Assembly: GCA_051294375.1 (NCBI GenBank)
Contig: CM119268.1
Span: 15,156,172-15,220,171, forward strand
Length of the DNA stretch: 64,000 bases
Origin: Paraspadella gotoi
Taxonomy: Eukaryota; Animalia; Chaetognatha
Reading direction: 5' to 3'
How positions within the stretch are numbered: position 1 is the stretch's first letter; each line of letters starts with the position of its first letter. The position numbers were made by a program, and so were the translations under genes. The notes beneath the pieces are model-generated. The model saw only the letters and a list, made by a program, of their open reading frames with translations, had not been told where the DNA came from and did no database searches. This document shows positions 53,840 through 59,800 of the stretch, piece by piece.

Positions 53840-56800
53840 CTACCAAACGAATCCCAGTCTCTCCTTGCTTCCCGTCGGACCTAGCACGGTCTGTTTGACT
53901 TCTTCCGTATCTTGACGTCCATTGCAGGGCAGTTGGTTCCCTTGCGCGTCCGCGGTCATGTAGCTCGGCCTTACCCTTCCTTTCTCCTCGAAGATAGGCC
54001 CGTGTCCGCCGCCGCAGCCGGCCCGGGCCACGCGTTCCAACGGAAAAGTGGGGCAACCTGCCGCGCCTTTTTCGGCGATGGTCCGTTTGGCGTATTCCTG
54101 GAGATGTGATGTGGGGTATGTTTAACTTGGTTCATTATAAAAGTGAACCAGACGAAGCTCGGAAAACAAATCTGGAGAAAGGAGACGGAGAGAAAAAGAG
54201 AGAGAACGGGAAAGAGTGATATAGAAAGAGAGATAAAGAAAGAGAGATATAAAACATTTTATTCTACCACCAGCCTCATGTCTCACTCTCTTCCAAATCA
54301 TAAAAGGTTTAAACTTACCCAACCTCACCTGACCCGGCGCCGACCTCACCTGAAACTCTTCCTCATCCTCTTTCATCTTTTCCTCGTGCATCCGATCGAC
54401 GGCGAGAGACTCTTCCTTCCGCCGACGAGATTTCTCGGCCATCATCTCCATTTGATGCTTGCGATAATGGTTCACGATCTGAGACGGGGGGGAGGTGAGG
54501 AATGAAACAATCAATTAAACTCATATTTACTGTAATTAATGAATGAATGAATAATTCAATCATCAATCTCTCAATTAATTAGTGAAATCATTGAATCAGT
54601 CGAAAAATAATTCATTCAATCATCCAATCAATCAAAAAAAATCTATCATACAAATCAATTTAGAATTGAATGAATATATTCGAATGAATGAATGAATAAA
54701 TAAATAAATGAATGATTCAATGAATAAATGAATTAATGAATCTATCAATAAATCAATCAATCAATCAATCAATTAATCAATCAATCAATCAATCAATCAA
54801 TCAATCAATCAATCAACCTTGTTCTCTTCGTCGCTGATTCTTTTCTTTTCTCTTTCGTTCTCCATGAAAATCGCGTCGGCCTCTTGTCGAAGTTCGATGA
54901 GTTTAGTCTCCTCTTCCCTAAAATATTATTTTTTTAAGGTGAACATTTTCACAAAATTTATTACGAACGCAGACGGCGCATGCGCTGATCCCAAATATTT
55001 GGCTTCCAAAACAATAAAGCGCTGACATTTAGCCAAATAAAATATCGTCTTTGTACCAAGCATATCACATTTTCCACGTTCACTAGTTAGTGAAGACAAA
55101 GACAAAGAAAAAAAAAGATACTGGCTTGGCTAAGCTTATAGAAGGTTTCAAGGGGACGGAATTCTATTAGGTGCAATCTTAGCGGTGCAATCCTACGTTT
55201 GCACTTTTTCATTTGCACAAACCTCCTTACGTTATACTACGTACGTGGTAGAAAGAGATTAAAGTCCTTGCATCTCCCAGCCTGCCTCACCTAACGGAAG
55301 CTTCCGTGGACGCTTTCTCCGCTCTAGTCATTTGCAAATGAGCTTGACTCTCCGCGACGTGCCTTCGTCTGGCGGCCTCTTTCGCCGCCGCCTCCTCCGC
55401 CAACTTCTTTTCTTGTTCGGAGATGGCGTTCGTTAGTCGTTCCTCTTCGTCGCGCTGTTTCGCCTAATTTTGAAAGAAAATTCTTGAATATTGCGTGATA
55501 TATCTTTTTTTGACGTTCGTATATTATTTTATTTTATTATTTTATTATTTTTTATTATTTTTATTTTATCATTTTATTTTATTTGTTAATAAATTTGGAT
55601 CGGCCTAACTTAATAAATTCTCTCTCTCTCTCTCTCTCTCTCTCTCTCTCTCTCTCTGTTTACACTCACAAACACACATACACATTACACATATTACAAG
55701 TATTACTGTTTGTCAAAAAGCAGATGCAGATGCAGATGCGGTACTTACGTCAAAATTGTTCTGTGTGTCCAGCAGGAAGAAAAAAAGAGATATAGATTTT
55801 AAAGCATAGCTCATACCCAACCTCACTGCTTCCTATTTTTTCTGGATTTACTTCGCACTGCTACATCGATGCTGAGCTCTCCCAGCTCTCTCAGTTGCAC
55901 CCTACTCCAGATTCTTGCTCCGTCGCTCCCTCCACCTCTACGCCCCCTTCCAGACCCCCCAGCCCATCTCCCCTTCCCGCGCCCACCCAAACTCCCGCAG
56001 GTCGACGCGCGTGAGATTCGTCTTTTTCGTCCCAATTTCGCGAAAACTTTAACCCTACGAATTGTGTTCCCGACGGCCAAGGTTGAGGGCCGAGTTGAGG
56101 CGCGCGGTCGAGACGAGGAGCTTCCCCCTTTTACTCAAAAACTAAAACAATCATAACAATAAAAACAGGAAAAACAATATAAAAAAATCAACAACAAGCA
56201 AACAATATATACTATTATACTATGAGCAAGACAGCAACGACGAAACAACAAGACAAATGACGACATATATAACGACGACATCACAACCAGTAAAACGACA
56301 ACCAACAATAACAACCACAACAACAAACCAAATATAAACAACGACAGAAACAACAACACTCAAAACAAATTCGCCAAAAAACAAGGAAACTATATCCAGC
56401 GTTCAATATACTATTCGCGTGTCTAAAGCCACAACTGAGGGACTCCCTAACTAATTTTTTTCCCTTCTCTTCCTCATTCTAAATTTAATCTTGACGCTGC
56501 TCCTCTTCTTTCTGTTTTAGTTTTAGTTTTTTGTTTTAAATGCTCTTAATAACGCTTTATGGTGGACTAAAATCCACCAACCGTTCATCAGCGGCCATTT
56601 GGTCCGGAGGCAAATCATTCGCCTCCCAACCCAAAGAGCCGGGGTTCTAGCCCGGTGGTCGTCTGGCAGTTAAGAGGGACGGGGCGCTTAACCCGCCTGT
56701 AACATGGTGTTACAGCCTGATCCGAAGCTCAGGGACTGCTTATATTGAACGGTTCTGTCACTAACACATAACAATAATTACTGTCTCTTCATTGGTGAGC

Positions 56801-59800
56801 CCGACTTCCGAACACAACAGCAACAACAACACTTTCAGGCGACATGCCTCAACCTGGCGATGCACTTCCGCCCACAACACACATCAGGCGACATGCCTCA
56901 ACTTGGTGACAAGCTTCTCCACCAACAACAACATTTACTGAAGAGACGCAAACAGACTTCTCCCTACGGGAGGGGATGTATGGTGGACTAAAATCCACCA
57001 ACTGTTCATCAGCGGCCATTGGTGCCGGAGGCAAGTCATTCGCCTCCCAACCCAAAGGTCCGGGGTTCTAGCCCGGTGGTCGTCTGGCAGTTAAGAGGGA
57101 CGGGGCGCTTAACCCGCCTGTAACATGGTGTTACAGCCTGATCCGAAGTTCAGGGGCTGCTATATTGAACGGTTTCTTGTCCACGTAACACATAACAATA
57201 ATTACTGTCTCTTCAGCTTCTATCTTTCTAAGTCTAACTTTATTTTTTTTGGTAATATCTGTTTGACTAACTGATAATCAGACAAACAGACAGAGAGTCT
57301 TCCAGAAAGACATCTCAGCGTTTTATCGAGTCGCGTTTATATGCGACTGAAAAAAAAAGAATAACTCTCTTTCATCGCGTAAACCAGTTATTTGCCCAAA
57401 TGTTTTGTTCTTTTATCTATTTGTCTATTTAGAAGTTTTTATTTCAGTCTGTCGATGTTGTTATTTTGACTCGGTCGTTCCAACGAATTTTTTATCACTT
57501 GATTTTTGTTTTGCTTTTGTTTTCAAAACTTTTTTCTCTCTCTTTTGACAGACTTGTAAATTCCATGCTTCTCAGAGACTTATCGCGCGCCTTGGATTTT
57601 CAACGGAACAACGACTATAGCTCTTGCTCTTGATTCTGATTTACAAATGTTAAAATTAATTCAATATGTTAAATAAAATAAAATTATCCTCGTATCGTTT
57701 AGATTGTCAACAGACATCTGTTGCATTACCGGCAAGGACTGTTCTTTCTCCAACCCCTCATCCACCTTGTATTTCTTGTCGAGCCGGTCGGCGTTCGTCT
57801 CGATGGCCGCCTGCTTGGTTTCGAAGAGTTCCCGCCGCTTGGCCTTCGTCATCCGCTGCATGTTTTGCTTGGTCTTAGCGAACCGAGTTGAGTTAACCAT
57901 CTCTTCGTGATCCATCGCCTGAAATTTATGTTTAAATAGTCTTATAATACGAATTAATGAAATATTATTAAAATAAAGTATATACATTTGATCTTTGCCA
58001 GAAAAAAGATTCAGTTTTTCGTCTGACGCAGGATCTCTTCCTTAGAAAAAAAAATCGTTCGGATTTTAAAAATGAATAGAATCGAACGCGGGACCTTCGC
58101 ACCACGACGCAAACCATCGCCTTTCCGTTTGACGGAAGAGACAGAGGCGACGCGTAATTCATCGTCGGCGGAAGGTAGTAACGTCGGGAGAGCCGGTTCA
58201 GACGCGGCGTCGGCGCGGCGACCTCGACCGGCGTCGCGGCGTCGCGCCTGTCATATACGTCGCGTCGCCGACGCGTCGCCTGGGACTCTTCTCCGGCGAC
58301 ACATCGTTGCCTGACCTTTAGAAACGACGCCGATATCAGTCATCGGCGCGGGCGATCGATGGAGCGTTTCCATCCCGGTTATGCCTACCATTTCTCTATT
58401 TTTTTGGCAAACATTAATAACTTGCTTTATTAATATAAAAACCTATAAAGCAAAAATATTGTCGATGCTATTCCGCTATGGAATAAAATGTTTATTGGAA
58501 AGCTTCGGGAAAACATTTCGGCCTTATTTTCTCAAAACGCCGCATTTCATCTTACATTCGGAATAAATTATGAATTTAAGGTTTGTATTAAAAATTAGGT
58601 TAAGCATTAAGATTAAGTATTAACTAAGTTTTAAGGTAAAGGATTAGAGTTTAGGGTAAAAAAATATGGTTAAAGATTAAGGATTAAAGATTAAGGATTA
58701 AAGATTAGGATGAGGTTAAGGATTAGGATTAAAAATTAAAAGATAAGTTTTATTATAGTTATTGATTTTAAAAAACAGAAATGGGGTGCTTTTGGAAAAT
58801 ACAATACCACGACCTATGGACTACATAGAGTGGAACAGAGAGAGAGAAGGAAAGAGAGAAAAATTTGGGAAGAATTTTACCTCCGAGTTAAATTTGATGA
58901 ATCGTCGTGAGCAATTCGCTCGTCATCATTACCCACGAGCATTAATGAGGGCGCTTTTAAAAGTCTAATCTCAGTCAACGTAATAAAATTACAATTGGAT
59001 TTACGAAGCGGTCAATCGATTGAGAGCCTTTTACCGCTTCCTGTATTTCGATAGCCTCGCGCCGTCAGGGTTATTTTCCGAGGGTCGCTCGAAATAACCT
59101 TCGATCAAAATCGGAAAGACCAAAGGATGAGTCACTCACCGTCACTCGGTTTTACGTTTTGGTCGCTGGTCACGTGACCTCTTTTTTAAAAATGGAAGGG
59201 ACGACGTACTAACGACGACTTTAACGAGAATTGAACTCTCTCTCTCTCTCATCTCCCTCTCTCTTCTCTCTCTCTTCTTCTCTCTCTCTCTCTTCTCTCT
59301 CTCTCTCTCTCTCTCTCTCTCTTCTCTCTCTCTCTCTCTCTCTCCCTTAGCGAGAGAGGACTTGACCTCCTAACGTGGGCGCGGATTAAAAGAGAGGAAT
59401 AAAAAAGAGACCCACCGAGGGAAAGAGACCCAAGGTCCAACAGAAATATAAAAAAATATTCTCAAATGCTTTTAGCCAGAGAATGCAATTTTTGATGGCG
59501 GGAGACTCGCGGTGCAACTTTTTTAGTTCCCTTGTTAAAAAAAAAAGAGGATCAAGGATCGAAAGAGAAAGAGATAGAATCATAGAGAAAGAAAGAGAGA
59601 GAGAAAGAGAGAGAAACAGAGAGGGAGAGATAGAAAGAAGATATATAAAGAGAGAGAGTGAGAGAAAAATATAGAAGAAGAAATACAGTATAAAAGAAAA
59701 AGAAAGAGAAAGAAAGAAAAAAAAGAGAGAGAAGACACGAAAAAAAAAGACATAGACACGGAGAAAGATAGAGAAATAAGAAAATAGCTTAAAAAAATCT

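Follow-up and report, generated by a model that had tools for sequence, protein, structure and literature searches.

What kind of mobile element occupies positions 56554 to 57219 of this stretch of the arrow worm Paraspadella gotoi, and by what route could it spread without a protein of its own? The stretch, referred to as the window, comprises 64,000 nt of contig CM119268.1, and the element within it is a miniature long terminal repeat (LTR) retrotransposon of 658 nt, protein-free, in which the order LTR, primer binding site (PBS), internal region, polypurine tract (PPT), LTR lies between GCTT duplications. The reading considered probable here is that of an LTR retrotransposon carrying a tRNA-derived cassette and a predicted twister ribozyme in each LTR, likely spreading in the manner of an LTR retrozyme by way of a self-cut RNA circle. 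Its parts lie as follows, in window positions:

56554–56557, plus strand: left target site duplication GCTT, its boundary independently set by loose contig ends at 56557/56558
56558–56791, plus strand: 5' LTR, 234 nt, with TA..CA ends (repeat alignment, contig ends)
56560–56579, plus strand: 7-bp hairpin opening the LTR, upstream of the tRNA-like part (fold prediction)
56591–56663, plus strand: tRNA-like cassette of the 5' LTR, with an acceptor-like stem, a degenerate A box and the B box GGTTC; putative promoter (13.4 bits in the tRNA model)
56665–56740, plus strand: predicted type-P5 twister of the 5' LTR, with G56678 at the general-base place and a predicted cut at U56689/A56690 (descriptor, pairing)
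56683–56688, plus strand: self-complementary 6-nt linker GGCGCT, which replaces helix P1 and could pair between two ribozymes
56690–57110, plus strand: predicted unit RNA between the cut sites, 421 nt, which would circularize (modeled)
56792–56978, plus strand: internal region, 187 nt, non-coding, C/A-rich
56793–56805, plus strand: PBS, tRNA-Trp-like (comparison with Fig. S2 of PMC10886601)
56968–56976, plus strand: PPT, with two to three extra G in many other copies (contig comparison)
56979–57215, plus strand: 3' LTR, 237 nt (repeat alignment, contig ends)
57012–57085, plus strand: tRNA-like cassette of the 3' LTR, the top tRNA-model match of the window (17.7 bits, E 0.0045)
57086–57161, plus strand: predicted twister of the 3' LTR, with a predicted cut at U57110/A57111 (descriptor)
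57216–57219, plus strand: right target site duplication GCTT (repeat alignment)
55461–57756, minus strand: host intron of a CFAP210/CCDC173-like gene, approximate bounds, within which the element lies antisense

The two LTRs are direct repeats that share 226 identities over 239 alignment columns, with six mismatches and seven gap columns. The flanking GCTT copies agree over four bases and differ at the fifth, a 4-base match expected from flank composition with a chance of about 0.006; the duplication length is read at this single locus. The PBS is set one base past the 5' LTR and agrees at 12 of 13 bases (mismatch at 56799) with the PBS for honey bee tRNA-Trp that PMC10886601 (Fig. S2) gives for Gypsy-32_NVi and Helenus-2_SyJa; the PPT lies two bases ahead of the 3' LTR. 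A first-pass annotation made from the letters alone had proposed this layout, the GCTT duplication and a PBS one base off that of tRNA-Trp; all three are confirmed, the first two by repeat alignment and contig junctions, while its internal length of 185 bp becomes 187 nt since the LTR begins TA and not TG. The internal region holds a 26-nt direct repeat (56835–56860 and 56884–56909). No open reading frame of at least 120 codons overlaps the element, and no second copy was found elsewhere within the 64-kb window. The suggestion that high LTR identity marks a young insertion is unsupported, with 94.6% identity of the pair across all columns and an empty-site allele absent from the contig rows listed for eight runs.

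The fold stability of the 5' LTR exceeds that of 200 of 200 shuffles (z -3.6). Further pairings were observed along the element: the last nine LTR bases (56783–56791) are complementary to 56939–56947, just ahead of the PPT; if paired, the two stretches would seal off the internal region and draw the PBS close to the PPT, which is itself part of an 8-pair hairpin. A 9-pair stem (56579–56587/56746–56754) encloses the tRNA part and the twister, and its 3' LTR copy carries a change at 57003 that is absent from about 97% of family depth.

The family was surveyed by aligning public contigs (sequencing runs X1, X4, X6 and others) to the locus. Run X1 places 12,266 contigs on it, at least 237 of which leave the LTR at 56791 with flanks agreeing at merely 0.42, and at least 192 enter the LTR at 56557/56558 or 56978/56979. 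The element belongs to a many-copy, dispersed family with sharp ends, the same LTR ends being joined to differing flanks; the dispersed copies that the first-pass annotation would have looked for are present as many such junction contigs. The roughly 200 junction contigs per end in single runs are a lower bound on insertions. Depth in run X4 reaches 1.5 million over the LTR versus 85 in the flank (about 10,000-fold), which suggests far more copies; summed contig depth is not a copy number, and junction counts alone are used. Of the 197 left junctions listed for run X4, the match begins at 56979 in 152, reaches one base further in 34 and includes TG in 11; the LTR ends are TA..CA, not the TG..CA first proposed, because most left junctions begin exactly at 56979 and few reach TG. 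Taken literally the TG..CA expectation failed, and the LTR class is retained on the precedent of the Helenus-3_MeDo LTR, which has ends of the TA..CA type (PMC10886601); TACA ends also occur in certain plant Copia elements (PMC9804982). One contig of run X4 joins an LTR end (57215) through four letters to an LTR start (56978), giving head-to-tail LTRs with a 4-base spacer. Exact 24- and 20-base LTR patterns found no match in metagenome and viral contigs, and the single contig from run X10 (organism B) and the three from run X11 (biofilm), one of them on the LTR, at depth 2–5, are no evidence of the family elsewhere.

These ends also bear on whether the locus is an LTR element at all, as a tandem short interspersed element (SINE) or a satellite-like non-LTR retrozyme could mimic one. 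Schistosomes have repeats that combine a tRNA promoter with a ribozyme (PMC6765202), and the ends of the element are not TG..CA; against this, some 200 junction contigs per end show sharp boundaries, a tail is lacking, a PBS and a PPT adjoin the LTRs and a 4-bp duplication surrounds the element; this explanation is considered highly improbable. The SINE-like tRNA and hammerhead repeats of Schistosoma and the twister variants of Perere-3 (PMC6765202, PMC8501958) resemble the element, as it is read here, in a Pol III (RNA polymerase III) promoter coupled to a ribozyme and in a twister within a retroelement, respectively; unlike the element, those are non-LTR and have no PBS, PPT or 4-bp duplication. 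Animal retrozymes are likewise described without LTR, PBS and PPT in the available part of PMC7761336.

The cassette measures 73–74 nt and begins 33–34 nt into each LTR, so the tRNA-like cassette first described stands with its size (72 nt) and offset (about 35 nt) adjusted. A tRNA search of it, proposed in the first-pass annotation, gave mixed results: ARAGORN reports no tRNA in the element and the Rfam tRNA family gives no match at expectation values (E) up to 10, while a covariance model built from 68 phage and giant-virus tRNAs without the motif used to fetch them ranks the cassettes first and second of 11 matches over both strands of the 64 kb (57012–57085, 17.7 bits, E 0.0045; 56592–56663, 13.4 bits, E 0.098). 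With a sequence-only tRNA profile the 3' LTR beats 1000 of 1000 shuffles, and the score of the 5' LTR is reached by 11 of 1000. The tRNA likeness, a property of sequence, is weak yet beyond chance, because the covariance model ranks the cassettes as its top two and few shuffles reach the profile scores. The best match among 146 viral tRNAs, a set that is not animal, is Trp, with zero and one of 300 cassette shuffles as good. Within the acceptor-like stem, two G-U pairs become G-C through common family variants, 57080 T>C and 57083 T>C.

Conservation of both boxes across the family had been expected and holds for the B box: the stretch 57063–57079, with GGTTC at 57064–57068, has no variant of 3% or more. 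The A box is degenerate and reads TGGTG or TGGTC, then CGG; the usual A is found in a minority variant only, 57026 C>A, which restores it at 12% of depth in X4 and 3.5% in X6. The plus strand contains no TTTT until 57243, so none lies inside the element. Two points tell against a Pol III unit of this kind, namely that the usual A-box A is missing from most copies, and that the absence of TTTT is weak evidence, 261 of 2000 shuffles being likewise without it. The cassette is judged from its letters to be a likely Pol III promoter. A 5S rRNA origin of the LTR was rejected, as 283 and 174 of 300 shuffles score equally well, and so was one for the sequence that follows the cassette (90 of 500 shuffles as good). 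For a looser whole-LTR 5S alignment, whose penalties were set once the first had failed, 18 of 500 shuffles score as well, against a reference in which only 2 of 108 are true 5S genes; a 10-letter match to Ajax LTRs is within chance. Cassandra and Ajax TRIMs (terminal-repeat retrotransposons in miniature; PMC10886601) share the use of an LTR promoter derived from a small RNA; theirs is 5S and that of the element is not. As for the 5S-motif loci themselves (L121–L240), two of 108 are whole 5S genes, and most of those printed (e.g. L121, L122, L125) show a tRNA-type A box ahead of a 5S C-box region, resembling in this the LTRs of Ajax or the heads of SINE3, on host-rich metagenome contigs.

By the structural definition of Kojima (2024; PMC10886601), applied to its sequence, the element is a Helenus-type TRIM, because the tRNA model ranks both cassettes as the top two in 64 kb; the resemblance to Helenus noted in the first-pass annotation, with tRNA-like LTR sequence and a Gypsy-type 4-bp duplication, fits this definition. 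Features shared with Helenus TRIMs (TRIMp3) are the short non-coding form, tRNA-like LTR sequence, PBS, PPT and the animal-type 4-bp duplication; the Trp-like PBS is shared with Helenus-2_SyJa and Helenus-2_SyUm, and the TA..CA ends with Helenus-3_MeDo. Unlike Helenus, the element adds a twister fold behind the tRNA part, whereas the available text of PMC10886601 names no ribozyme in Helenus; it also has no T run after the cassette, common in the Helenus LTRs listed there, its A box is weaker, and its host seems to fall outside the lineages listed in the available portion of the paper. Twelve short motifs revealed no sequence kinship with the Helenus consensuses in that portion, giving few matches of 7–10 letters. 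Many of the Helenus LTRs seen have at least four T just after the tRNA part (an impression rather than a count), a signal expected to end Pol III transcription within the 5' LTR.

The departure from Helenus that the first-pass annotation overlooked is the 76 bases behind the cassette, which read, in order, helix P5, GACGG, a 6-base linker, UAA, P2, GC, an 8-pair P3, a P4 of five pairs and a loop with the letters UCCGAAGC. In arrangement and in letters the stretch agrees with the Rfam Twister-P5 and twister-P1 consensus (GAxGG, UAA, GC, P3, P4, UCxxAAGC), taken as printed for fetched natural twisters. Catalytic G and A are both in place, as are the conserved L1 letters (U-A-A with the cut site; G-A) and L4 letters (U..AAGC), and the predicted pairs are made throughout: 3/3 and 2/2 in the pseudoknots T1 and T2, 8/8 in P3, 5/5 in P4 and 6/6 in P5. 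One T1 pair is G-C, altered on both sides, versus C-G in 10 of 10 distinct natural matches printed. A twister descriptor matches the two LTRs and nothing else in 64 kb, and 4 of 200,000 LTR shuffles. In the family no variant of 3% or more occurs in 57087–57124, 57086 G>A (46%) retains a P5 pair, a variant at 57126 (33–49%) falls in the P3 loop, and the U at 57149 in the 3' LTR copy, which makes a G-U in T2, is C in about 98% of family depth. In tested twisters P1 is dispensable, flaws in P1 and P2 are tolerated, and G-U is tolerated in the 2-pair pseudoknot (PMC5408937, PMC11662667); locus L271, with a 3-pair P2, passes the Rfam Twister-P5 threshold. Type-P5 twisters (RF02684) and the element share strand order, catalytic G and A, U-A cut site, both pseudoknots, P3, P4 and P5, whereas in the element a 6-nt linker replaces P1, P2 is shortened and carries a bulge, the two bases of one T1 pair have changed places, P4 is closed by A-U and the Rfam model misses it. 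The twister fold is well supported by sequence, and each copy is considered a predicted ribozyme.

A number of observations weigh against this fold. Rfam RF02684, RF03160 and their clan give no twister match at E up to 10. The P1 hairpin is absent, its place being taken by the 6-nt self-complementary linker; P2 consists of three G-C pairs and a bulge, versus four pairs in type P5, and is absent from the best fold; the P4-closing pair is A-U, where the twister P4-closing pair has been called essentially invariant G-C (PMC5408937). In its best fold the monomer forms a hairpin in which the T1 and P2 strands are inaccessible (probability 0.99; P2 0.0), unlike natural type-P5 twisters, in which P2 is part of the best fold in 4 of 4, and the best fold of the whole precursor displays neither twister nor dimer. 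The descriptor was loosened after the candidate was seen and recovers 11 of 23 fetched candidates; the latter are themselves impure, Rfam assigning 3 of 12 to type P5 and 5 to type P1, with 4 unmatched. In the family, T1 is disrupted by 57145 G>A, which falls on a CpG (9% of X4 depth, also 2.5%), and the final pair of P3 is lost with 57125 A>T (10% and 4%). A hammerhead in the element was also sought and rejected: a minus-strand CTGATGA is followed, by eye, by neither the ensuing stem nor GAAA, and Rfam gives no match.

If the fold were silent, the locus would be an ordinary Helenus-type TRIM, in which Pol III transcription begins at the 5' cassette and continues beyond the 3' LTR, a long repeated (R) region allows normal strand transfer, and the twister-like stretch is a relic or a structural element. 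In favor of this reading, the element fits the Helenus definition, the blocking hairpin dominates the predicted fold, Rfam sees no twister, and a transcript that runs through, no internal terminator being present, would contain a repeat of 200 nt. A relic is expected to decay, whereas all catalytic and pseudoknot positions are kept and are nearly invariant over a very large family; a silent twister is considered unlikely. The preferred reading of an active ribozyme is retained, and the mechanism would shift from ordinary strand transfer to cutting and circularization because a twister fold lies in each LTR.

In the proposed cycle Pol III would start near 56591 and read through the element, as it is without a run of four T. 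Cleavage by the predicted twisters would fall at U56689/A56690 and U57110/A57111; the active form may be a swapped dimer, with one GGCGCT linker pairing with the other to build a common P1. The released 421-nt unit would have no terminal repeat, and its ends, the two halves of one ribozyme, would be held paired via P5; because these ends stay paired the unit would be ligated to a circle, where the blocking hairpin would keep it uncut. With tRNA-Trp as primer, reverse transcription could then proceed around the circle; reverse transcriptase and integrase would come from a Ty3/Gypsy element, leading to the 4-bp duplications. A comparable model exists for plant retrozymes, in which a cut unit without terminal repeat is ligated, reverse transcription runs round the circle and 4-bp duplications result (PMC4918200).

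Fold calculations address parts of this cycle. With pseudoknots left out of the calculation, the skeleton of the swapped dimer reaches -51.7 kcal/mol, a pair of active monomers -40.0 and a pair of blocked monomers -50.8; in the predicted circle the unit ends, two ribozyme halves, pair with each other. Three results speak against these steps: the best two-strand fold (-70.2) differs from the swapped dimer, a self-complementary 6-mer arises by chance in 5% of cases, and the pairing of the circle is not above shuffles (0.53 vs 0.56; z -2.2). An active twister might also merely trim a linear RNA, setting one end or removing host-intron read-through, with reverse transcription jumping between paired ends and no circle formed. 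Cuts in both LTRs, by contrast, leave no terminal repeat, which is the reason given for the circle in plant retrozymes in the available text of PMC4918200; trimming alone is considered quite unlikely.

Spread through a circle thus remains the preferred reading, and it invites comparison with plant LTR retrozymes (Cervera et al. 2016, PMC4918200). Both are non-coding and have one ribozyme per LTR (predicted here), a PBS, a PPT and a 4-bp duplication; also shared are a unit RNA between the cut sites and a ribozyme that is blocked in the predicted circle. The element differs in that its predicted ribozyme is a twister and not a type III hammerhead, that it carries a tRNA-derived cassette, that its primer is Trp-like and not Met, that its unit is 421 nt versus 600–1000, and that its host is an animal. 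By this analogy the element most likely works like an LTR retrozyme, yet is no member of that group because the hammerhead is absent. A bolder proposal is that animals have a class of LTR retrozymes not described before, driven by Pol III, primed by tRNA-Trp and spreading as circles, whose twister would cut only as a strand-swapped dimer, so that the two-LTR precursor is cut and the one-ribozyme circle spared, with a type III hammerhead in the same slot in two gall-wasp Helenus families; it is offered tentatively, its chances being put at somewhat below even. No published description of a twister within an LTR element was found, subscription journals, Repbase and Dfam lying outside the coverage, and a term search of two arrow worm genome papers returned no TRIM or tRNA-LTR element.

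The LTRs of the two families named above, Helenus-2_SyJa and Helenus-2_SyUm (Data S1 of PMC10886601), show by eye a type III hammerhead behind the tRNA part. GTC, stem I, CTGATGA, stem II, GAAA and complementary loops can all be recognized, and the available text of the paper does not mention them. Since both Trp-PBS Helenus families appear to hold a type III hammerhead, it is suggested that ribozyme-bearing Pol III TRIMs form a wider class.

Elsewhere in the window, the CFAP210/CCDC173-like host gene spans 53843–63462 on the minus strand with at least 10 exons, those that flank the host intron lying at about 57757–57933 and 55290–55460. It is closely followed by exons at 52655–53468, also on the minus strand, with a weak CLAMP (PF14769) match (E 0.0018). 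A Nemo-like kinase gene lies at 43.9–46.8 kb on the plus strand and has a long first exon with poly-His and poly-Ala. In a quick tree of this kinase with 52 rows, the gene is represented by four proteins 97–98% alike (three by measurement, one by cluster membership), and these fall outside the lophotrochozoans, arthropods, vertebrates, ambulacrarians and nematodes included, a sample in which many phyla are missing. AT-rich imperfect palindromes with arms about 75% alike, resembling miniature inverted-repeat transposable elements, are present at 2104–2275 and 9387–9673. An 80% alike repeat (29436–29600 and 30268–30462) flanks an N gap at 29882–30169, and its second copy has many single-base insertions; the repeat around this gap is likely an assembly artefact.

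LTR retrozymes have so far been described from plants and with hammerheads. If the reading favored here is true, the twister, placed in the LTRs of an animal TRIM of very high abundance, would acquire a defined role, Pol III TRIMs would gain a means of fixing their RNA ends without a terminator, and animals would have a hidden source of small RNA circles; with its TA..CA ends, the family can escape LTR finders based on TG..CA.

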